This document shows, one piece after another, positions 3,702-27,503 of a stretch of 64,000 nt of DNA; the first letter of the stretch is position 1, and the number at the start of each line of letters is the position of its first letter. Source of the DNA: Candidatus Moraniibacteriota bacterium. Lineage in GTDB: Bacteria; Patescibacteriota; Minisyncoccia; Moranbacterales; GWC2-37-73. The position numbers were made by a program, and so were the translations under genes. The DNA lies in contig JAAXUC010000002.1 in assembly GCA_013336225.1 (NCBI GenBank), positions 74,634 to 138,633 on the forward strand, read 5' to 3'. The notes under the pieces were generated by a model. The model ran no database searches, was not told where the DNA came from, and worked only from the letters and a program-made list of their open reading frames with translations.

Positions 3702-4778
3702 ATGCAACATAAAGTTGTAAAAAAAAGCTCAGTCCCGAATGTTTTGATGCTAGTTGTCATTGGTATTGCCACACTTGCTGTTTCTGGCAAAGCTCAAGCT
3801 GGTGGTCTCGGCAATGTTTCTGTGCGATTGGATCGAATGATGGCCGGTCAGGCAACTGGGGGCACAATTTGTGCTCGTCCAATTACTACAGATACTGAAA
3901 CATTAGTGAAAATAACATTCCCAACAGGTTTTACAGTGAATCCTACCGCTGCTAACTGGACGACAAGTGTTACAAATCTGCCGGCTAATCCAGCTGGCTA
4001 CACTGTGGCTGCTTGGCCTGGTATAGGTGCAGCTGCTCAAACGGCATCTGGACAGGATGTGACTTTTGTTAGTACTGATTTGACACCAGGAACCACAATC
4101 TATTGTTTTAATTTTTCAGGGACGACAACATTGACAACTGGCACCGCTTCAAATGCTTATGTTGGATCGGTGACAACGCAAAAAGCTGGCCCAACAACGA
4201 TTGATTCATCTTCTTATAATCTTTCAACAATTACTGACGACACAATTACTATTACGGCTGTGGTGCCACCAAATTTTAGTTTTTCAATCGCTGGTGGCAA
4301 TACCGATAGCTTTACAGGAAATCTTTCTACCAGTGTTGTTTCTACTACTGGAAAGACAGCTACAATTACCACTAATGCTGCCAATGGCTGGGTTGCTTGG
4401 GTAAAAAGCGCCAATGCTGGACTCACTTCGGCCAGTGCTTCAGCTAGTATCGCCACCGCAGGAACAGTCAATAACTCTACTGCTGATTCTGACTTAGCAA
4501 GTACTACGGGTTATGTTTTGGACGTATCCTTTACAGATAGCGCAACTGCTACAACCGGAACAGTGAGTCAAGCTGCTGGATATGGAGCTGAATATGCAGG
4601 AAACGGGACGAGTTCAGGAGGAACACTTTCAACAACATTTCAACCCATTGCTGCTGCAAGCGGTGTTACTGATGGAGATACGATAACTTTAAAAGAAAGA
4701 GCAAAAATTAGCGCTATTCAAAAAGCTGCTAATGACTATACTGATACGCTGACTGTGATTGCTGCTGGAAGATTTTAA
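3702..4778 (+). CDS. Secreted Thr/Ser/Ala-rich surface protein, paralog 2
   Basis: 358 aa. Signal peptide MQHKVVKKSSVPNVLMLVVIGIATLAVSGKAQA. It has the same composition and C-terminal motif as the 2424-3485 product. Confidence 0.6.
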   Translation: MQHKVVKKSSVPNVLMLVVIGIATLAVSGKAQAGGLGNVSVRLDRMMAGQATGGTICARPITTDTETLVKITFPTGFTVNPTAANWTTSVTNLPANPAGYTVAAWPGIGAAAQTASGQDVTFVSTDLTPGTTIYCFNFSGTTTLTTGTASNAYVGSVTTQKAGPTTIDSSSYNLSTITDDTITITAVVPPNFSFSIAGGNTDSFTGNLSTSVVSTTGKTATITTNAANGWVAWVKSANAGLTSASASASIATAGTVNNSTADSDLASTTGYVLDVSFTDSATATTGTVSQAAGYGAEYAGNGTSSGGTLSTTFQPIAAASGVTDGDTITLKERAKISAIQKAANDYTDTLTVIAAGRF

Positions 4779-4806
4779 ATAAACACATCAACAGCTCGTT
4801 CGTGTA

Positions 4807-4834
4807 AAAACCTCCCAATTCGGAGGTTTTTTAT
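4807..4834 (+). terminator. Rho-independent terminator
   Basis: AAAACCTCC-CAATTC-GGAGGTTTTTTATTT. Confidence 0.6.
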
Positions 4835-7307: not shown

Positions 7308-8237
7308 TTGTTGTATATGAAAAAGAAATTAACATATTTAACTTTAATATTGGTTGGCGCATTATTTTTTTCAAAAAATGCCTTGGCTGATGATCAAAAT
7401 TTTTCCATCAGTCCTTTTTTTCAAGAAATTAATTTGGAAAAAGAGCAAGAGAGAACGGATTTTGTATTGGAAATTGCCAATAACACCGGAGCTGCTGCAA
7501 CCTTGAAATTGTCGGTGCTTGATTTTGGAGCGCTGGACGAATCTGGTGGGGTGGCTTTTTTGGGCAGCGCTGAAGATTTGAAAAACAAATATGCTCTAGC
7601 TTCTTGGGTCAGCTTGGAAAAAGATTCAGTTGTAATTAATCCTGGTGAAAAACAAAATGTCCGAGTGATGATTGAAAACAAAGATTCTCTTTCGCCGGGT
7701 GGACATTATGCTGCTGTGATGGCCAATATGGCAAAGGAAGATGATGGAACTGGCAGTGAGTCATCAATTGTTGCGCTTGATCCATCATTTGCCTCACTCA
7801 TCTTCGTGCGCAAAGTTGGCGGTGAAATCTATGGTTTGAATTTGAAAGATCAAGAAATTGAAAAGAATTTTTTGAGCTTGCCAAGCAATGTGAGATTGCG
7901 TTTTCAAAATACTGGTAATGTCCATGTCAGTCCGCGCGGAATCATCAAGCTCACCGATCCGTTGGGACGAGAAATTGCCACTGGAATCATCAATGGTGAA
8001 TCGGCCATAGTTTTGCCAGAAACATTTCGCAAATTCCCAACTGAGTTCAAGCAAGCAGCCGTGGCTTTCATGCCAGGGAAGTATGAGCTTTCGGTGGCAT
8101 ATCGCTTTGACGGAAAAGAAGATTTTGTGACTCAGCAGCAAGTTGTCTATTTTTTCCCAATTAAGATAATGCTCGCAAGTATTTTCATGCTTGTATTGGT
8201 AGCCTTTAGCTGGAGAAGGTTTAGGAGAAGAAGGTAA
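7308..8237 (+). CDS. Secreted protein with C-terminal TM anchor and RRRR tail (NTGNVH-PRG family), third paralog
   Basis: 309 aa with a signal peptide. The motif FQNTGNVHVSPRGII matches LKNTGNVHLAPRGNIF in the tandem duplicates. C-terminal TM helix followed by WRRFRRRR. An alternative start lies at 7317. Confidence 0.65.
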   Translation: MLYMKKKLTYLTLILVGALFFSKNALADDQNFSISPFFQEINLEKEQERTDFVLEIANNTGAAATLKLSVLDFGALDESGGVAFLGSAEDLKNKYALASWVSLEKDSVVINPGEKQNVRVMIENKDSLSPGGHYAAVMANMAKEDDGTGSESSIVALDPSFASLIFVRKVGGEIYGLNLKDQEIEKNFLSLPSNVRLRFQNTGNVHVSPRGIIKLTDPLGREIATGIINGESAIVLPETFRKFPTEFKQAAVAFMPGKYELSVAYRFDGKEDFVTQQQVVYFFPIKIMLASIFMLVLVAFSWRRFRRRR

Positions 8238-19852: not shown

Positions 19853-21556
19853 ATGAAATATTTGGCTTTCACAAATCAAGATATTGAAAAAATTCTTGGT
19901 GAGTCTGGCGTGGTTGATGAGGCAAAGGTTGCCAAAGCAGTGGCTAGTGCCAAGCTGGAAAATAGCTCACTTGCAGATGTCGCTGTCAATCAGGGGCTTG
20001 TTACTAATGAAGAATTGTCCAGATTGGTGGCGGATGCACTGGATATGCCATTTATGTCACTTGCTGGAAAACTTCCAACCAAAGAGACTTTGGCACTTAT
20101 TCCTGAATTAGTGGCCCGCAAGAAGCGCGTGGTGCCTTTTAGGTTGGATGAAAAGGGATTACATGTTGCAATGGCGGATCCCACTGATCTTGAAACACTC
20201 AATTTCATTGCTCGCAGGGAGGGCATGCATGCCATTGCCTATGCCACCACTGATCAAGATATTGATACTGTCCTGGAGCTGTATGGCGAAGGGTTGAACA
20301 ATTTGTTGGAAATAAAATCTGAAAAGTCTGGAAAAGTTGCTGGCAGCGAGGATGATTCTTCCATTATTCAGATTGTGAAAAAAGTTATTGTGGAGGCGTA
20401 TCGCAATCGCGCCTCTGATATTCATATTGAACCGCGCGAAGAAAGCGACAGTGTGATCAGATTTCGTATTGATGGAATTTTGCATGACGTCACCTTGATT
20501 CCAATGGAATTGCATGCCCAAATCATTTCGCGCATCAAAGTGATGGCAAAGTTGCGAACTGATGAACATCAAACTCCACAGGATGGAAAAATTTCTTTCA
20601 AGCTGGAGGATGACAATTCTGAAATGGATTTGCGTGTTTCAATCGTGCCGGTGACAGAAGGAGAAAAAGCAGTGCTGCGTCTTTTGGCTGAACGTTCTCG
20701 TCAATTTTCATTGGCTGGCATTGGCCTTAGTGAAAATAATCTGAAAAAAATTCAAGAGGCTTATGAAAAACCATATGGCATGGTTTTGTCGACTGGACCG
20801 ACTGGTTGTGGAAAAACCACAACATTGTATGCCATTTTGAAACTTTTGAATAAACGGCACGTGAACATCATGACCATTGAAGATCCGGTGGAATATGACA
20901 TTGATGGAGTGAGCCAAATTCAAGTCAATCCCAAAGCAAAGCTTACTTTTGCCTCAGGTTTGCGCAGCATTTTGCGTCAAGATCCGAACATCATTTTGGT
21001 GGGAGAAATTCGTGATCAAGAAACGGCTGGCATTGCAATCAATTTGGCGCTTACGGGACATCTGGTTTTATCAACCTTGCATACTAATGACAGCGCCACG
21101 GCCATTCCACGTTTCATTGATTTGGAAGTGGAACCATTTCTGATTGCTTCGACTGTCAGTGTCATCATCGCGCAACGTTTGGTGCGTAAAATCCATGATG
21201 GCTGCAAAGTGAGCGAGGAATTTAAAGCGGCTGACATCGCCAAGAAAATTGGTTGGGAGCTTACTGAAAAAATGTTTGGTGTCAAAAAATCCAATCCGGA
21301 TGGTACTGTGCGACTGTATCAAGGCAAAGGTTGTGAAGCTTGTCAGGGAACAGGTTTTCAGGGCAGAATCGGAATTTTTGAAGTGATGGTCATGGATGAT
21401 CAAATGCGACAAGCAATTTCTCAAAACAAAGATGCGGGCTTTTTGGAGGAGTTGGCGAAAAAGTCAGGCATGATTGGTCTCTTGGAAGATGGCTTGGGAA
21501 AAGTTAACATGGGAATTACAACTATTGATGAGATTTTGGGTGCCACGAAATTATAG
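19853..21556 (+). CDS. pilB: Type IV pilus assembly ATPase PilB/GspE family (locus 1)
   Basis: 567 aa with an N-terminal GspII_E-like domain. Walker A is GPTGCGKTT. The ATPase core begins ASDIHIEP and a tetracysteine motif follows (C...C...CEACQGTGFQGR). Confidence 0.85.
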   Translation: MKYLAFTNQDIEKILGESGVVDEAKVAKAVASAKLENSSLADVAVNQGLVTNEELSRLVADALDMPFMSLAGKLPTKETLALIPELVARKKRVVPFRLDEKGLHVAMADPTDLETLNFIARREGMHAIAYATTDQDIDTVLELYGEGLNNLLEIKSEKSGKVAGSEDDSSIIQIVKKVIVEAYRNRASDIHIEPREESDSVIRFRIDGILHDVTLIPMELHAQIISRIKVMAKLRTDEHQTPQDGKISFKLEDDNSEMDLRVSIVPVTEGEKAVLRLLAERSRQFSLAGIGLSENNLKKIQEAYEKPYGMVLSTGPTGCGKTTTLYAILKLLNKRHVNIMTIEDPVEYDIDGVSQIQVNPKAKLTFASGLRSILRQDPNIILVGEIRDQETAGIAINLALTGHLVLSTLHTNDSATAIPRFIDLEVEPFLIASTVSVIIAQRLVRKIHDGCKVSEEFKAADIAKKIGWELTEKMFGVKKSNPDGTVRLYQGKGCEACQGTGFQGRIGIFEVMVMDDQMRQAISQNKDAGFLEELAKKSGMIGLLEDGLGKVNMGITTIDEILGATKL

Positions 21557-21593
21557 ATATATATAAAAAACAAGAGCTATGCTAGATTAGGTG

Positions 21594-21725
21594 CTTTTGA
21601 TTTCTTATTTCCTTTTTTAGGAACATTTTTGACTGAAATTCATAGTCAAAAAACTTACTCGCTCTCGCTGCGTAGGTCCTAAAAAGAAAATAAGCAAATC
21701 AAAAGGTGAGTTAATTTTTGAAATC
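21594..21725 (+). repeat. Family B structured repeat, copy 1 (intergenic pilB-pilC)
   Basis: Outer arms TTTGATTTCTTATTTCCTTTTTTAGGAAC and GTAGGTCCTAAAAAGAAAATAAGCAAATCAAAA are complementary. The inner hairpin is TTTTTGACTGAAATTCATAGTCAAAAA. The core is CTCGCTCTCGCTGC. Homologous to 24344-24474 and 30273-30416. Confidence 0.7.
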
Positions 21726-21730
21726 ATATA

Positions 21731-22816
21731 TTGCCCATAATCAAAAAAATAAATATGAAAATATTCTCAGGACTCTCATACTTAGAAAAACTTTTTTTCA
21801 TCAAGCATCTTTCGATGTTTTTGAAATCAGGCATTCCGCTGGATGAAGCACTTGAAACATTGGCTGAAGGTGAGCAGAAAAGTTCTATTAGCAAAGTCGC
21901 GTTGTCAGTCAGGGCTCAGATTCAAAATGGGCAGCCACTGCATAAGGCTTTTGCCAAGGAATCCAGTTCATTTGATCTATTTTTCATTTCCATGGTGGAA
22001 ATTGGAGAAGTGTCTGGCACGCTGGAAAAAAGTTTGGATTTTTTGGTGGCCAAAATCACCAGAGAGGCGACGCTGCGAAAAAAAATTCAAGCCATGCTAT
22101 ATTATCCAGCTGTGGTGGTTGGCGCTGCAATCGTGATTGGAGGTTTTGTGAGTTTTTTCGTGTTGCCAAAATTGGGGGACATGTTCAAATCGTTTGATGT
22201 GCAATTGCCTCTTATAACCAGGATATTATTGGCTTTTGCTAATTGGGTGAAAGATTATGGTGCAATTGCGATGATATCTTTCATTGCGTTGCTGATTGTT
22301 TTTCGTGTGCTTATCGCTGCTTGGACGCGTCTGCGATTTTTTTGGCATAAAATCAAATTCAACCTGCCCATTACAGGCAAAGTCATCTTGGGCTCAGAGC
22401 TTTCGGCATTTTTTCGAAACATTGGAATCATGCTTTCCAGTGGACTTTCTTTGGAATATGCACTTGCCACTGAATCTAAAATTTCAGACAACCTTGTCAT
22501 GAAAAAAGTGGCAGCTGATTTGCACATGGCGGTGACTCAGGGGCGGCGCATGGGGGAAGAGTTGAAAAGTGAAAACAACACGATTTTCCCTCAGCTTTGC
22601 GCAAGAATGATTACGGTGGGTGAGATGTCTGGAAAACTGGAAGAATCATGCATGTATTTGGCTGATTATTTTGAAGATGAAACTGAGGTGCAAGCAAAAA
22701 ACATGGCTGCAATTTTGGAGCCAGCCTTGCTTTTAGGCATCGGAGCGATCGTGGCTTTCATCGCAATGGCTGTTATTTTGCCTATCTATTCTTTGACTGG
22801 TTCCATTCGTCGCTAA
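21731..22816 (+). CDS. pilC: Type IV pilus platform protein PilC/GspF family (locus 1)
   Basis: 361 aa with two GspF-like repeats and 3-4 TM helices. It sits immediately downstream of pilB. Confidence 0.75.
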   Translation: MPIIKKINMKIFSGLSYLEKLFFIKHLSMFLKSGIPLDEALETLAEGEQKSSISKVALSVRAQIQNGQPLHKAFAKESSSFDLFFISMVEIGEVSGTLEKSLDFLVAKITREATLRKKIQAMLYYPAVVVGAAIVIGGFVSFFVLPKLGDMFKSFDVQLPLITRILLAFANWVKDYGAIAMISFIALLIVFRVLIAAWTRLRFFWHKIKFNLPITGKVILGSELSAFFRNIGIMLSSGLSLEYALATESKISDNLVMKKVAADLHMAVTQGRRMGEELKSENNTIFPQLCARMITVGEMSGKLEESCMYLADYFEDETEVQAKNMAAILEPALLLGIGAIVAFIAMAVILPIYSLTGSIRR

Positions 22817-22834
22817 GATGTTGAAAAAAGTTAA

Positions 22835-23290
22835 ATGTCAAAAGTTAAATGTCAAATATTGCATAAGCAGGGATTTACTTTAATCGAATTACTTTTGGTG
22901 ATTGCGCTTGTTTTGATCGTGAGTGTTCCAACCGCTGCTTTTTCCACGCATTTCATTTATCAAATGTCTGTGCGCGATGCCTCTGAAGGTTTGGTTGGAA
23001 TGCTGCAAGAAGCGCAAGCACTTTCAATGCTGGGCAAAGAGAATTCAGCTTGGGGCGTGAAAAAGCAATCAGGAAAATTGATTCTTTTTCGGGGAGAAGA
23101 TTTTTCAAATCGCGATCAAGCATTTGATCAAGCGTTGAGCATAAATTCGCATGTGAATATGATAGGTTTTGATGAAATGAGTTTCTCGCGCTATGGAGGA
23201 TTTCCTTTGCAGCCAACTGGCTCAATTGTTGTGGCTTGGGGGAATGTGAACGAAATATTTAAATTAAATTCGGAAGGAGTTTTTGAATAA
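22835..23290 (+). CDS. Prepilin-type minor pilin (pseudopilin)
   Basis: ...HKQG then FTLIELLLVIALVLIV: a class III signal with G/F cleavage and Glu+5. Confidence 0.7.
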   Translation: MSKVKCQILHKQGFTLIELLLVIALVLIVSVPTAAFSTHFIYQMSVRDASEGLVGMLQEAQALSMLGKENSAWGVKKQSGKLILFRGEDFSNRDQAFDQALSINSHVNMIGFDEMSFSRYGGFPLQPTGSIVVAWGNVNEIFKLNSEGVFE

Positions 23291-23298
23291 TTATCAGC

Positions 23299-23769
23299 AT
23301 GAAAAAAGGAATATCACAAAAGCGAGGTTTTTCGGTGCTAGAAGTCATTTTAGCAGTGGCACTTTTTTCCATTTTTTCCACTACTGCTGTTTCCTTTGTG
23401 CTTGAATCGATGCAAGTGCAAGCTCAAGCCAGTCAATTTGAAAATGCCTCACTGTATGCCGAGGATGGCTTGGAAAAAATAAGAGCAGTGCGAGATGTTT
23501 CATTTGATGAATTGGTGGATGGGTCTGAATATGGATTGAACTTCAATGCTGGTAAGTGGGAATTGAAAAATGGCAGTGATGAATCTGAAATATACAAAAG
23601 AATCATCACAATCGAAACAGCCAAAAGAGACGGTGAGCTGAATATTGTTTCGGAAGACGGAGCAGATGATTTGAATATGAAAAAAATAATAGTAGATGTT
23701 TCCTGGAAAAATGCCACGGGCGAAAATGTTTCAACTCAGCTAGTGACTTATCTTTCTCGTTGGAAGTAA
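23299..23769 (+). CDS. Prepilin-type minor pilin (pseudopilin)
   Basis: MKKGISQKRG then FSVLEVILAVALFSIF: a class III signal. Confidence 0.7.
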   Translation: MKKGISQKRGFSVLEVILAVALFSIFSTTAVSFVLESMQVQAQASQFENASLYAEDGLEKIRAVRDVSFDELVDGSEYGLNFNAGKWELKNGSDESEIYKRIITIETAKRDGELNIVSEDGADDLNMKKIIVDVSWKNATGENVSTQLVTYLSRWK

Positions 23770-24293
23770 AAAATATGACAAATAAAACAAAAAAGGGCTT
23801 TACCTTCATTGAAACTATATTATATATAGCAATTTCGTCAGTTGTGGTTGGCGTGCTTTTTGCCTATGGTTGGAATATGGTCAGCGCGCGCACTAAAGCT
23901 GCCACCATGCGAGACACTGCTGCAAATGCCAGGCTCATCATGTTGCGCCTCAACAATGAAATTCGCATGGCAACTGATATTGATAAAAATAATTCTGTTT
24001 TTGAGGGCGAAAATGGAAAAATATCGCTGACCACTCCTCAAGGAAAGATCATGATCGAATCAATTGGAGATAGGATTTCCATTGCCAGAGGGGAAAATTC
24101 CCCGCAATTTCTTTCCGGAGAAAATGTGCGCGTGAGAAATTTTCAATTATCCAAACAAGAAAATGACGCTGGGAAAGTTCAATATGTGGGATTTTCTTTC
24201 ACAGTGGAAGCCTATTATCCTGAAGCGCTTAACAGTTATGAATACAATTATTCATTGCCAATTAATTCGGGAGCGGAGGTGAGAAGTCAGTAA
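23760..24293 (+). CDS. Prepilin-type minor pilin (pseudopilin)
   Basis: ...NKTKKG then FTFIETILYIAISSVVVG: a class III signal. The start is probably the ATG at 23775. Confidence 0.7.
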   Translation: MEVKNMTNKTKKGFTFIETILYIAISSVVVGVLFAYGWNMVSARTKAATMRDTAANARLIMLRLNNEIRMATDIDKNNSVFEGENGKISLTTPQGKIMIESIGDRISIARGENSPQFLSGENVRVRNFQLSKQENDAGKVQYVGFSFTVEAYYPEALNSYEYNYSLPINSGAEVRSQ

Positions 24294-24343
24294 AATTAAA
24301 TTATGTATGCATATAAAGGATGCATTGTTCCGTCATTAAGTAT

Positions 24344-24474
24344 TTTGCTTTGCTTATTTCCTTTTTTGACACATTTTTGACTGAAAATCATAGTCAAAAA
24401 ACTGATTCGCTCTCGCTGCATAGGGTCTAAAAAGAAAATAAGCAAAGCAAAATGGTGTGGATTAATTTTTGAAA
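24344..24474 (+). repeat. Family B structured repeat, copy 2 (between minor-pilin genes)
   Basis: Same arm/hairpin/core arrangement as 21594-21725, with scattered substitutions. Confidence 0.7.
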
Positions 24475-24488
24475 GCGCATGTTGCAAT

Positions 24489-24905
24489 ATGATCATATAT
24501 GAATCAGAAAATAAAAAAGGTTACGTGGTTATTTCAACAGTCTTGATCTTGCTTTTTGTTACCTTGGGAATCGCTGCCACGCTTTCATTTCTTTCAATTG
24601 GAAGCTCAAAAGTTTCGCAGTCTTTTGGCGAAGGGCGGCAAGCGTTGTTTCTTTCTGAATCTTGCCTGGAGGAAGGATTGTTGCGACTCAAAACTGACGT
24701 TGCCTATGCTGGCGGAACAATCAATTTTCCTGAAGAAAAAGTGTGTCATCTCAACATCACGAATGATGGCCAAATATATACGATGCAAGCCTACATGCTA
24801 GGGCAAAAAAAATATGTACGTTCTCTTGAGGTACATGTGAATATTGTTGATGGCATTTTGCAAATAATAAGTTGGGAAGAGAAACCTTTTGTGATAGAAT
24901 ATTAA
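24489..24905 (+). CDS. PilX-like minor pilin (PilX_N-type hydrophobic N-terminus)
   Basis: KKGYVVISTVLILLFVTLGIAATLSFLSIG...RQALFLSESCLEEGLLRL resembles the PilX N-terminal domain pattern. 138 aa. Confidence 0.5.
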   Translation: MIIYESENKKGYVVISTVLILLFVTLGIAATLSFLSIGSSKVSQSFGEGRQALFLSESCLEEGLLRLKTDVAYAGGTINFPEEKVCHLNITNDGQIYTMQAYMLGQKKYVRSLEVHVNIVDGILQIISWEEKPFVIEY

Positions 24906-24906
24906 T

Positions 24907-26268
24907 ATGTTTTTTCGCCATCACATCACTACCATCTTTGTAACTCGCGGCAAGATCACTTCCGCTGTTTTTTCGACTGGTGGAAAAAACATCAAAGCAG
25001 CGGCTGTGTATGATTGGAACGAGGAAAATCTCGCCCTTGTTCTTGCTGACATTGCAGCGCATGGTCCAAATGTGGTCAGGGTTGTTTTTGGAGAAGAATT
25101 CTCCTATGTTACCACACTTGATTCTTCCAAGGGTGATAGAGGAAGCATTTTGGAAAAGGCGCGCGAAGCGATTCCTGAGGAGCTGGGGGATAATTGGGAT
25201 TTTCGCAAAGAAAAGGATCAGCTCTTTTCCTCACAAGTGATTGCCGTTCAAGCTCAGCTGCTGAACATGTTTATTGAAAAATTGAAAGAAGCCGGCTTGC
25301 GCGTGGAAGCCATGGAGCCTCAATCAGTGGCAATTGCTCGCTTGCTTCCAAAAACTGGCTTGTTTCTTTTTGCCGTGAATGACGAGAAGTTTTTGATGGG
25401 GGCAGTGAGAAATGGCACAGTCATTGGAACTTTTGTGGCTGCAAAAAGCGATGACGCTTCAATGTTGGCGGGCTTTGTTGCTTCAGTGCGAAAAAAATGC
25501 AAAGAAGAACTTAGCACAGTCTTGATCGATAAATATATGCAAGTTGGGGACGATGTTTTTTTGGCCAATGGCTTGCAGCCTGAAATCATGGAGCTTGACC
25601 CCCTGTATTCAATTGCAGTAAAGAAACATCTTGTTGGTAGTGATTCACATGTCTTGAATATTTTGCCAGTTGATAAGAAAATTCTCAAGAAGCAGGCAAC
25701 AGAAAAATATTTATCAAAAATTGAAAACACTGCAACAGTGCAAGCTCCTGCTCGCTTTTCATTGCGCGAAAAAATATTGGCAATCTTTTTTGTTATAGGT
25801 CTTGTCGCAAGCGGATTCGTGTTGCTTAAAAAAATGCCACCCAAGAAACAAAGCATCTCATTGATTGCAACAGAAAAAAAGCAAGAAGTTGCCATGCAAA
25901 ATGATGTTATTCAAAATCCTTCAGCAACTGTGGAACAGCAAGCTTCTGCCGAAAAGGTTGTGCAAGATGTCGTTTCAACAAAAAGGCCTCAAGATTTGCA
26001 AATTTTGATTCTAAACGGCGGCGCAGCTGTTGGTAGCGCAGCAAAAGTTAAGGATATTTTGGTAGCCAAGAAGTATGTGAATATTGACGCTCAAAATGCG
26101 GAAAATAAGGATAATGTTGGAGTTGTCCTGTATTATCAAGCACAAAATGTGGAAAATATGGCTCAAATAAAAGCAGATTTACAAAAAACATATCCTAAAA
26201 TAGTAGCCAAGGAGGCGTCCTCAGCTGAGGAAAAATCTTCGGAAATCGTCATTATATTGGGGAAATAG
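24907..26268 (+). CDS. PilM-like actin-fold domain, TM helix, C-terminal LytR_C domain fusion protein
   Basis: The N-terminal ~280 aa resemble PilM (…SQVIAVQAQLLNMFIEKLKEAGLRVEAMEPQSVAIARLL…). A TM helix ILAIFFVIGLVASGFVLL follows. The C-terminus LQILILNGGAAVGSAAKVKDIL...VGVVLYY...IVIILGK matches LytR_C. Confidence 0.55.
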   Translation: MFFRHHITTIFVTRGKITSAVFSTGGKNIKAAAVYDWNEENLALVLADIAAHGPNVVRVVFGEEFSYVTTLDSSKGDRGSILEKAREAIPEELGDNWDFRKEKDQLFSSQVIAVQAQLLNMFIEKLKEAGLRVEAMEPQSVAIARLLPKTGLFLFAVNDEKFLMGAVRNGTVIGTFVAAKSDDASMLAGFVASVRKKCKEELSTVLIDKYMQVGDDVFLANGLQPEIMELDPLYSIAVKKHLVGSDSHVLNILPVDKKILKKQATEKYLSKIENTATVQAPARFSLREKILAIFFVIGLVASGFVLLKKMPPKKQSISLIATEKKQEVAMQNDVIQNPSATVEQQASAEKVVQDVVSTKRPQDLQILILNGGAAVGSAAKVKDILVAKKYVNIDAQNAENKDNVGVVLYYQAQNVENMAQIKADLQKTYPKIVAKEASSAEEKSSEIVIILGK

Positions 26269-26381
26269 GGCTTCAAAGATAGTGGCCGGAATCTTTTTTG
26301 TGCCATTTGCAGGCACAATATGGCTCAATATTGACTATAACAGCAAAATCGTTTAAGATAGGTATTAGTTGAGAAATTCCA

Positions 26382-26453
26382 CGGGGCGTGGTGTCAACGG
26401 TAGCACGAGTGATTTGGGATCATTTAGACAGGGTTCGAATCCCTGCGCCCCGA
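26382..26453 (+). tRNA. tRNA-Pro (anticodon TGG)
   Basis: Cloverleaf fold: acceptor CGGGGCG/CGCCCCG, D-stem GTGT/GCAC, anticodon stem AGTGA/TCATT with loop TTTGGGA, T-arm CAGGG-TTCGAAT-CCCTG, discriminator A. CCA is not encoded. Confidence 0.85.
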
Positions 26454-26456
26454 CAT

Positions 26457-26507
26457 AAAACAAAAACAGAGAGGACTTTTTGAGTCCTCTCTGTTTTTGT
26501 TTTATTT
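26457..26507 (+). terminator. Strong Rho-independent terminator after tRNA-Pro
   Basis: AAAACAAAAACAGAGAGGACT-TTTTG-AGTCCTCTCTGTTTTTGTTTTATTTT. Confidence 0.75.
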
Positions 26508-26508
26508 T

Positions 26509-26815
26509 GGATTGCCAGGGATTCGAACCGGTGGCAGTGAGCTAGAGAATTTTCAGCAGAAAATTGTCGCAGCGAACGCCGGTAAATGTGAGGAATACGA
26601 ACATTTAGCGCCACCGCGGACAAGGAGATTGTGAGCGACGGCGAACAAGCGACGCGGAAATCCCTGCTTCTCTGCGTACTCGCGAGAAAGTTCGGGGGAA
26701 GAGGAATCCCTCTCCTTATGGCATTTAGGAAGTACGAACATTCAGCTCTGCCGCGGACAACTAGCAATCAGCAAATTGCGAGGCGTAAATCTCTGCACCC
26801 ATTTGTATAAAAACC
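26509..26815. ncRNA. Candidate structured non-coding RNA region, identity unresolved (contains an inverted tRNA T-arm fragment)
   Basis: About 300 nt that is markedly more GC-rich than its surroundings. CCAGGGATTCGAACC is the reverse complement of a tRNA T-arm. Internal near-duplicate segments are GGAATACGAACATTTAGCGCCACCGCGGACAA and GGAAGTACGAACATTCAGCTCTGCCGCGGACAA. There is no convincing ORF and no full tRNA, tmRNA or RNase P fold. Confidence 0.3.
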
Positions 26816-26858
26816 CTTTTCGTGCTTAGATTAAAGCATAATTGTAAGATAATCAGAT

Positions 26859-27503
26859 ATGAGTTATCACGGAAAAATTGACAATAGAAAGAAGATTGCC
26901 TTGATTGTGGCGCGCGAGCTGCGAGCGCTTTTTCCGGATGCTAAAATTGCTCTTAATTTCAGCAATTCCTGGGAACTTTTAGTGGCGGTGATTTTGTCTG
27001 CGCAGTGCACTGATAAGAAAGTGAACGAAGTGACGGCCAAGCTTTTTCAAAAATATCCAATATTGGATGACTATGTGGCTGCCAACCAACTGGAATTTCA
27101 GCAAGATGTTTTTCAAACAGGTTTTTATCATAATAAAGCTAAGAACATTTTGGCTAGCGCCAAGATTGTTAAAGAGAAATATCAAGGTAAAGTTCCTTGT
27201 ACAATGCAGCAGCTCCTTGAACTGCCTGGCGTCGCCCGCAAGACCGCCAATGTGGTTTTGGGCAGTGCATGCGGCGTGCATGTGGGAATCGCGGTGGACA
27301 CGCATGTGCGAAGACTTTCCAATCTTTTGGGACTTAGTCCTGAAAAAAATCCTGATAAGATTGAAAGAGATTTGATGCAAATTTTTCCCAAACAGGAATG
27401 GCCAAAACTTTCCTACCGCTTGATTGAATATGGCCGCAAATATTGCAGTGCTAAAAAACATGATCACGAAAATTGTCCACTGACAAAAATTTTAAACAGC
27501 TAA
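26859..27503 (+). CDS. nth: Endonuclease III-like HhH-GPD DNA glycosylase
   Basis: Helix-hairpin-helix LPGVARKTANVVL with the catalytic D in VDTHVRRL. Only two Cys lie in the C-terminal region, where canonical Nth has a C-X6-C-X2-C-X5-C 4Fe-4S motif. Confidence 0.7.
   Translation: MSYHGKIDNRKKIALIVARELRALFPDAKIALNFSNSWELLVAVILSAQCTDKKVNEVTAKLFQKYPILDDYVAANQLEFQQDVFQTGFYHNKAKNILASAKIVKEKYQGKVPCTMQQLLELPGVARKTANVVLGSACGVHVGIAVDTHVRRLSNLLGLSPEKNPDKIERDLMQIFPKQEWPKLSYRLIEYGRKYCSAKKHDHENCPLTKILNS

Follow-up and report, generated by a model that had tools for sequence, protein, structure and literature searches.

What occupies the GC-rich stretch of some 300 nucleotides (nt) that follows a tRNA-Pro gene in the genome of a Candidatus Moraniibacteriota bacterium? 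The stretch (26509-26815) lies in a window of 64,000 nt, the whole piece of contig JAAXUC010000002.1 that was analysed, and positions refer to this window unless another locus is named. A preliminary description suggested that the stretch may be a novel or divergent non-coding RNA of about 300 nt, or else the scar of an integration event targeting the tRNA gene. We found that 26509-26815 is composite: it consists of one complete and one 5'-truncated copy of an element of about 150 nt (units B and A, respectively), with a 42-nt fragment between them. The element belongs to a lineage-specific family of structured elements that are linked to tRNA genes. To our knowledge no such family has been described, and we know of no counterpart to its ends, which are rewritten to match the neighbouring tRNA; a full-text literature search returned no description of the family.

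Several of the first impressions were borne out and can now be placed within the units. The GC content is 0.52-0.535 in 26500-26799, compared with about 0.35-0.45 around it. The reported inverted T-arm fragment, CAGGGATTCGAACC, is an exact 14-nt reverse complement of tRNA-Pro 26432-26445, and it is the 5' boundary of every unit of the family. The near-duplicate segments (26596-26623 and 26733-26760, 86% identity over 28 nt) are the 3' strands of helices P4 and P3, a stretch of the core that units A and B both contain. A degenerate pattern spanning both duplicate segments matched twice in the window, with 0.02 matches expected.

The idea of a single RNA of ~300 nt had to be given up. We obtained syntenic loci via close homologues of Nth, whose gene lies downstream of the GC-rich stretch. 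In locus L002 (Nth 90% identical), an 89% match covers window positions 26330-26667 while 26668-26801 is absent. In L004, the two halves are split by an MscL gene and a 73-amino-acid (aa) open reading frame (ORF; L004 1996-2981), whereas in the window both Pro-type units adjoin. In L005, the tRNA-Pro gene has the opposite orientation and nothing resembles the region. The region is therefore modular, and relatives hold one unit or two gene-separated units. Compared with shuffled sequences, the whole stretch folds modestly better on the plus strand (z -2.13) and no better on the minus strand (z -0.83). What remains of the non-coding RNA proposal is a conserved, covarying structured family that lies outside Rfam.

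A family of structured elements with ends copied from tRNAs

A degenerate pattern of the core, run over the GTDB species-representative genomes, matched at least 115 genome stretches; a few matches in other phyla arose by chance and carried no unit. With nhmmer (E<1e-6) we delimited 134 units in 107 loci, including 99 single units, 13 pairs, one array of four and one of five. Nearly all unit-bearing genomes are metagenome-assembled genomes (MAGs) of Moranbacteria, Parcubacteria or other Patescibacteria, and up to 12 units occur in one MAG. Many of the unit-bearing GTDB-representative MAGs are titled 'uncultured Bdellovibrionales' or 'uncultured Gammaproteobacteria' (binchicken third-party annotation assemblies; L011, L015, L016, L020, L027, L033, L038, L039, L044, L052, L060 and others). 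These record titles are probably wrong because the loci resemble Parcubacteria.

The units are tied to tRNA genes in both position and orientation. For 98 groups of units there was enough flanking sequence for an assessment, with orientation taken from the unit sense on the tRNA strand. A co-oriented tRNA gene lies upstream of 69 of them, ending a median of 58 nt away, and the opposite orientation was never seen (0 of 98). A hairpin and a T-run separate tRNA and unit in nearly all loci. The tRNAs comprise 14 isoacceptors for 11 amino acids: Glu (two), Pro, Lys, Tyr, Gln (two), Gly (two), Trp, Ser, Met, Arg and His. The T arm GGG-TTCGAWT-CCC is found in 80-87% of the unit-linked tRNAs, compared with 24-25% of the tRNAs in the same loci that have no unit.

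Along the tRNA strand, the order is tRNA, short trailer, hairpin terminator, inverted copy, core, direct copy and a second terminator or the next gene. The inverted copy reproduces positions 53 to ~65-72 of the local tRNA and the direct copy positions 58-74, often with the trailer included. Between them, the core is conserved and purine-rich and forms helices P3, P5, P4 and P2. The element ends exactly like the adjoining tRNA: at least 11 of 13 positions of the local tRNA tail, which comprises the 3' strands of T stem and acceptor stem and the discriminator, are matched by the direct copy in 33 of 57 proximal units. Where the acceptor stem contains a G·U pair, the direct copy follows the 3' strand, and both copies track the local variant of the T loop (TTCGAAT, TTCGATT, TTCGACT or TCCGATT). 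Similarity extends into the trailer and even the terminator in L089/L125, L026, L050, L108 and L033, and in L113 only 2 nt separate the direct copy from the tRNA that follows in the operon. The inverted and direct copies pair over about 7-8 bp (P1, SAGGGAUU/AAUCCCUS), so the element is closed by a mimic of the T stem of that tRNA. We had considered that P1 might continue into an acceptor-like extension, as in a minihelix; the extension is mostly absent (median length of P1, 7 bp) and the idea was dropped.

An alignment of 44 long-form units supports a five-helix structure (P1, P3, P5, P4 and P2). In these helices 90.1% of the alignment cells are paired, compared with 75.9% after shuffling, and none of 500 shuffles reached the observed value. 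Compensatory double changes occur in 25 of 40 pairs, and the covariation score of 0.484 exceeds both that of shuffled alignments (0.226) and that obtained with slid partners (0.09-0.13). RNAalifold recovered P3 and P4 independently. Another candidate pairing, GCGUC with GACGC flanking the core, shows no covariation in the alignment and was discarded.

As far as sequence comparison can tell, the evidence points to the tRNA strand as the folded strand. On this strand G·U outnumber A·C combinations by 116 to 42, the minimum free energy of single sequences is the lower one in 73 of 80 units, and the RNAalifold energy is -18.3 as against -8.0 on the opposite strand. Its composition is purine-rich (G 0.33, A 0.29, C 0.23, T 0.16). 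Our first alignments had taken the minus strand as the RNA sense, which was overturned by these G·U and A·C counts, energies and base composition.

In order to see how well the unit is kept at an orthologous site, the window can be compared with L002. At the 4-fold degenerate sites of nth the two are 52% identical; the figure is 68% for the intergenic region upstream, 88.4% for unit B, 87% for the terminator and 100% for tRNA-Pro. Unit B thus stands far above the degenerate sites of nth and has been kept under constraint at this site. Cores are also closely related across tRNA identities. For instance, the Pro-linked core of the window is 92.6% identical to a Trp-linked core of another MAG, a Tyr-linked core is 93% identical to a Lys-linked core, and within single MAGs the nearest relatives are cores adjoining different tRNAs. 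These kinships show that cores move or convert between tRNA loci.

Some units have outlived their tRNA. A pseudo-tRNA-Pro AAGTTCGTATTGACTCCCACAACCTCGACAT occurs in L007 (~2130-2160) and before the distal unit of L036 (~7703-7733), in different MAGs, and a well-conserved unit follows each of them. Upstream of solitary units, BLAST detected tRNA remnants in 6 of 27 cases and two more were found by eye. In L105 (1-5060), three units lie 2-2.6 kb apart. Each has a hairpin and the decayed remains of a tRNA-Trp-like sequence in front of it, and hypothetical ORFs on the same strand lie in the intervals; two of these Trp-like remnants are further cases of a unit that persists behind a decayed tRNA. 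The arrangement resembles an array of cassettes or modules. Units in L105, L036 and L004 enclose hypothetical ORFs in small same-strand sets, and a Pfam search of 10 ORFs between units found no families.

A scan with Nth as the query returned 80 loci, among which were only one distant unit (L260) and two tRNA-Pro genes that have a different T arm and no unit. The L260 unit (1183-1520; Nth 63% identical) follows tRNA-Pro, is divergent, has an extra hairpin after the inverted copy, and its direct copy, GAATCCCTGCGCCCCGAC, is perfect over 18 nt. Our search pattern thus does not capture the full breadth of the family. A search for core-less 'empty hairpin' sites (GGGATT..AATCCC) found none, as only real T arms matched, and a metagenome scan with the 453-aa protein encoded upstream of tRNA-Pro in the window found no relatives.

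Units B and A in the window

The features of the locus are listed in Table 1. Unit B scores 173 bits against the covariance model R1, although it is among the training sequences of that model. The conserved purine-rich junction GGACAAGGAG (26618-26627) reaches the first base of P2. The acceptor part of the direct copy of unit B has decayed, with CTTCTCTGCG in place of CGCCCCGAC; only AATCCCTGC is retained, and the L002 orthologue retains the full CCCTGCGCCCCGACC. Unit A keeps the P4 and P3 3' strands (26738-26753) and the P2 hairpin GCAATCAGCAAATTGC (26764-26779), its direct copy AAATCTCTGCACCCA (26787-26801) is partly decayed, and it scores only 12.3 bits against the long-form model R1. It is absent from L002, and its L004 orthologue lies beyond the MscL gene. 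Of the two copies in the window, unit B is intact and ordinary and unit A is decaying.

Table 1. Features of the tRNA-Pro locus, in window coordinates
Feature	Position	Strand	Evidence and remarks
Unit B, complete, P1 to P1	26516..26666	+	nhmmer 6.8e-45
Copy 2 of unit B, inverted copy of tRNA-Pro positions 52-65, CAGGGATTCGAACC	26516..26529	+	Inverted repeat; first 8 nt are the P1 5' strand
Helix P3, 26529-26534 (CGGTGG) with 26611-26616 (CCACCG), encloses P5 and P4	26529..26616	+	Compensatory changes in 3/6 pairs; 96.6% of cells paired; RNAalifold
Hairpin P5, 26545-26553 with 26560-26568, conserved CAGCAG loop	26545..26568	+	Compensatory changes in 8/9 pairs; inverted repeat I3
Hairpin P4, 26580-26589 with 26601-26610	26580..26610	+	98.7% of cells paired; compensatory changes in 4/9 pairs; inverted repeat I4
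Hairpin P2, 26627-26632 with 26645-26650	26627..26650	+	Compensatory changes in 6/6 outer pairs
Copy 3 of unit B	26659..26676	+	AATCCCTG is the P1 3' strand, direct copy of tRNA-Pro positions 58-65
Recurrent 42-nt fragment GCGTACTCGCGAGAAAGTTCGGGGGAAGAGGAATCCCTCTCC	26674..26715	+	Ends in T-stem-3'-like GGAATCCCT; contains 'CR-I-like' GAGAAAGTTCGGGGG
Unit A, 5'-truncated, short-P2 form	~26727..26801	+	nhmmer 1.8e-33 over 26669-26811
tRNA-Pro(UGG), anchor gene	26382..26454	+	ARAGORN; Rfam tRNA 54.8 bits; 100% identical to L002 orthologue
term1, hairpin terminator, 20-bp stem, A-tract before and T-tract after	26457..26503	.	Terminator scan
Near-perfect palindrome, 98 nt	26432..26529	.	Inverted repeats I1 and I2

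The 42-nt fragment also adjoins Pro-type units in L036 (~4770-4830) and, upstream of units, in L047 and L069. It runs from GCGTACTCGCGAGAAAGTTYGG to GGAGGAATCCCT with the palindrome CTCGCGAG, and could represent a unit that is broken or reduced to a minimum. The T arm of tRNA-Pro is CAGGG-TTCGAAT-CCCTG. Because an A-tract precedes its stem and a T-tract trails it, term1 is able to act both ways. The terminator is part of the 98-nt palindrome, of which the left arm is tRNA-Pro positions 53-76 plus trailer and the right arm the start of unit B; folded as RNA, the palindrome reaches -68.9 kcal/mol (z -12.6). It has a 3-nt loop and takes in part of a functional tRNA gene. Palindromes of ~98 nt are usually unstable in bacteria that carry SbcCD.

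The whole window holds only one tRNA and two units. The nth gene occupies 26859-27503, and its product is 100% identical to the Nth of a Moranbacteria MAG. A motif upstream of nth, TTTCGTGCTTAGATTAAAGCATAATT (window 26816-26841; L002 2958-2985; L004 ~2716-2740; L005 ~2962-2988), is kept in relatives with or without units and is probably the nth promoter or operator. Directly upstream of tRNA-Pro, 19853-26268 holds a type IV pilus cluster (PilB-like T2SSE, PilC-like T2SSF and pseudopilins) and the gene of the 453-aa protein, which has no Pfam hit. Besides type IV pilus proteins, the neighbourhood encodes sensor kinases, ThiI and YchF. The large ORFs of the window are almost all on the + strand.

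Origin and function of the units

Our working model is that the unit gives rise to an RNA that mimics a tRNA 3' end, is made by terminator read-through and spreads via the shared T-arm sequence; we give it about an even chance of being right. The element would be carried on transcripts that read through the tRNA terminator. We infer read-through because the 8-15 nt between the T-run of the terminator and the unit leave no room for a promoter of its own. The element would then fold as RNA, and its T stem together with the 3'-terminal tRNA sequence may let it interact with, or be matured by, the machinery for the 3' end of that tRNA. New copies would arise at other tRNA genes that have the GGG-TTCGAWT-CCC T arm, by recombination or copying through the shared sequence, and such copying would reset the ends to the local tRNA.

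Two kinds of known RNA come close to this model. The tRNA mimics (the tRNA-like domain of transfer-messenger RNA (tmRNA), viral tRNA-like structures, the YrlA Y RNA and mascRNA) also have a module derived from T stem and T loop and a tRNA-like 3' end. In contrast to them, the unit usually has no acceptor helix, matches no family model, is multi-copy and is specific to each neighbouring tRNA. Small RNAs from the 3' external transcribed spacer of tRNAs, such as 3'ETS-leuZ, are likewise functional RNAs in the trailer of a tRNA transcription unit, but they sit upstream of the terminator and are unstructured sponges that do not form a repeated family.

Several observations weigh against the working model. 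A strong terminator stands directly upstream, so any RNA of the unit would be a minor product of read-through. RNA is inferred from strand asymmetry only, and folding of single-stranded DNA fits equally; moreover, both strands give negative z-scores against shuffles (-2.8 and -2.3), so that it is mainly the asymmetry of the wobble pairs that identifies the strand. With P1 rarely reaching the acceptor part, the element does not qualify as a true minihelix substrate. Decay of the direct copy in 24 of the 57 proximal units, and a subclass that has no P1 3' strand at all, speak against strict selection on the ends. For about 21 units no tRNA could be detected in the vicinity. Finally, all sequences are MAG contigs.

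A possible but less probable explanation is that the units are selfish, non-autonomous DNA elements comparable to miniature inverted-repeat transposable elements (MITEs), REPINs or attC sites, folded as single-stranded DNA and recognised by a recombinase or transposase supplied in trans. The tRNA-derived ends would then be target duplications, and the conserved structure would serve mobility and not the host. Close relatives differ in the number of units (the window has two, L002 one and L005 none), tandem arrays exist, one core adjoins different tRNAs and the ends decay to variable degrees. Terminators bracket the units on both sides with no space for a promoter. The folded strand is the tRNA sense strand, which is probably the lagging-strand template (positive GC skew, + strand gene bias), and the ORF sets flanked by units in L105, L036 and L004 would also fit. 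Against this stand the flanks, the conservation and the geometry. Crude clustering of ORFs in ~0.9 Mb of flanks showed no recurrent integrase, transposase or reverse transcriptase family, the recurrent ORFs being housekeeping genes. Unit B is conserved far above neutral at its orthologous site, unlike a purely selfish relic. No known transposition chemistry accounts for an inverted copy combined with a direct duplication of at least 17 nt that often runs on into trailer and terminator. The unit was not found in IMG/VR either: the strict pattern gave 0 matches, a 17-mer gave 120 that were all chance by nhmmer, and a 20-mer gave one non-unit. As far as these pattern scans tell, units are absent there, and a phage or plasmid origin was dropped.

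The known mobile repeats show where such an explanation strains. Like REP, BIME and REPIN sequences and MITEs (Correia, RPE, ERIC), the units are multi-copy, extragenic, GC-rich, structured, near terminators and variable in copy number among relatives. They differ in being strictly placed and oriented behind tRNA genes, in reaching at most about a dozen per genome, in their complex five-helix fold and in ends that are copied from tRNAs. A classical MITE was rejected on two counts: its terminal inverted repeats are fixed, whereas the inverted ends of the units vary with the neighbouring tRNA, and its target-site duplication is 2-14 bp, shorter than the direct repeat of the units. Neither ORF clustering of the flanks nor the window neighbourhood showed a transposase of a related autonomous element, in a search that did not extend to whole genomes. 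Integron attC sites and arrays of attC sites without an integrase (CALIN) share strand-specific folding, arrays and, in some cases, interleaved one-orientation small ORFs of no assigned function. The units have a highly conserved core sequence, tRNA-derived flanks, no R''/R' sites (RYYYAAC/GTTRRRY) at their ends and no IntI, with no integrase seen in the flanks or the window neighbourhood, and an attC identity was rejected.

We consider it unlikely, though worth stating, that the units are DNA copies or genes of a tRNA-dependent RNA that replicates or targets. In a retroelement-like form (a), an enzyme making cDNA would begin with the terminated pre-tRNA, copying terminator, trailer and positions 76 to 58 in turn, and would then switch template into the element via the shared T-arm sequence. 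This would explain the direct copy from position 58, the duplicated trailer and terminator and the inverted copy beside the terminator hairpin. Reverse transcriptases stop at m1A58 on a modified primer tRNA, and position 58 is the inner boundary of the direct copy. In a Neurospora retroplasmid, cDNAs become joined to tRNA sequences and insert at tRNA genes. A stretch of ~17 nt that is identical or complementary to a specific tRNA 3' end, with its inner boundary at 58/59, is likewise present in retroviral primer-binding sites and the Neurospora Mauriceville retroplasmid; however, no reverse transcriptase was found in the flanks of the units, and the copies match the adjacent tRNA gene and its unprocessed trailer, with no CCA. 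In a scaffold-plus-guide form (b), a protein encoded in trans would be guided to tRNA genes or tRNAs by the segment of ~17 nt from the tRNA 3' end. Guide RNAs (TnpB omega-RNA and the homing CRISPR RNAs of type V-K CRISPR-associated transposons, which target tRNA genes) also have a structured scaffold followed by a locus-specific, target-matching segment of ~17 nt, and share the position of the element tens of nt downstream of a tRNA gene. The units, in contrast, adjoin no effector gene in the flanks, lack transposon ends and have the 5' half of the would-be guide paired in P1. If either form were true, the units would be a new class of tRNA-linked RNA element in bacteria of the candidate phyla radiation (CPR).

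Very improbable is the classical version of the integration scar suggested at the outset, in which the direct repeats are attL and attR and the core is a conserved arm of mostly deleted integrative islands. What stood of the suggestion is that the ends copy the adjacent tRNA 3' end, as at integration sites. The direct repeat that flanks the insert in the 33 well-matching proximal units begins in the T loop, a known sublocation of tRNA-targeting integrases. In L113 the distal copy looks like a displaced original 3' end because it lies so close to the next operon tRNA, and gene sets stand between units in L105, L036 and L004. Elements and islands integrated at tRNA genes, with accretion as in cis-mobilizable elements (CIMEs), share this repeat, the intact tRNA, tandem arrays and occasional sandwiched genes. 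What defeats the classical reading is the variety of tRNA ends found with one core: the identity block of an attP is single and fixed, and here near-identical cores have the ends of 14 isoacceptors. No integrase, tyrosine or serine, was seen in the flanks or the window neighbourhood, and a unit of ~150 nt encodes none. The core covaries as a folded single strand under purifying selection, as arm-type binding sites do not, and this reading offers no account of the additional inverted copy. Within one genome the terminators vary from locus to locus and hence are not borne by the element.

A single housekeeping RNA of ~300 nt (tmRNA, RNase P RNA, 6S RNA or signal recognition particle (SRP) RNA) too divergent for standard models is refuted by copy number and by the comparisons with L002 and L004: its length and GC content would suit, as would the T-arm-like motif beside a tRNA, but the units are multi-copy per genome and arrayed by many tRNAs, and the close relative L002 has half of the region. 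The searches for known families agree. With Rfam 15, no family was assigned to 26509-26815 at E<=10, nothing but tRNA reached the gathering score in the whole window, and seven loci with consensus-like copies gave only tRNAs and chance miRNA matches on the terminator palindrome. ARAGORN found no tmRNA, and P1 lacks the acceptor-stem extension; a tmRNA on the minus strand, which ends in GGTTCGAATCCCTGGCAATCCA followed by a terminator, is ruled out by ARAGORN, Rfam, copy number and the strand evidence. The resemblance of GAGAAAGTTCGGGGG to the CR-I box of RNase P RNA does not survive, as the string sits in the inter-unit fragment outside the conserved core. The lack of an Rfam match also excluded RNase P, 6S and SRP RNA. 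An intrinsic terminator alone was rejected, as the conserved units lie beyond term1.

The chance that the units are a short protein-coding gene, or else a tRNA pseudogene in decay, is equally negligible. In favour of these readings, 27 of 44 units have an open frame on the minus strand, and the ends are tRNA-derived. That strand, however, is poor in A and G, which makes stop codons rare; units vary in length by 1-2 nt; substitutions in helices are compensatory; and outside the T arm nothing in a tRNA resembles the core. None of the six-frame ORFs, which the preliminary description had called low-complexity, is credible, given length differences that are not multiples of 3 and the stops in most frames, and the homologues in relatives are not protein-coding. 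ARAGORN and Rfam call only the neighbouring tRNAs, and only tRNA positions 53-74 are represented in the units.

The genomes of CPR bacteria (Patescibacteria) are ~1 Mb in size and highly streamlined, yet up to a dozen units of 150 nt are kept behind tRNA genes. Their design is a conserved folded core with both ends rewritten to match whichever tRNA precedes it. A covariance model is now ready for annotating hundreds of intergenic regions that are currently blank. The family points to a novel tRNA-related RNA function, such as a decoy, processing or quality control, or regulation, or else to a novel route of copying between tRNA genes.

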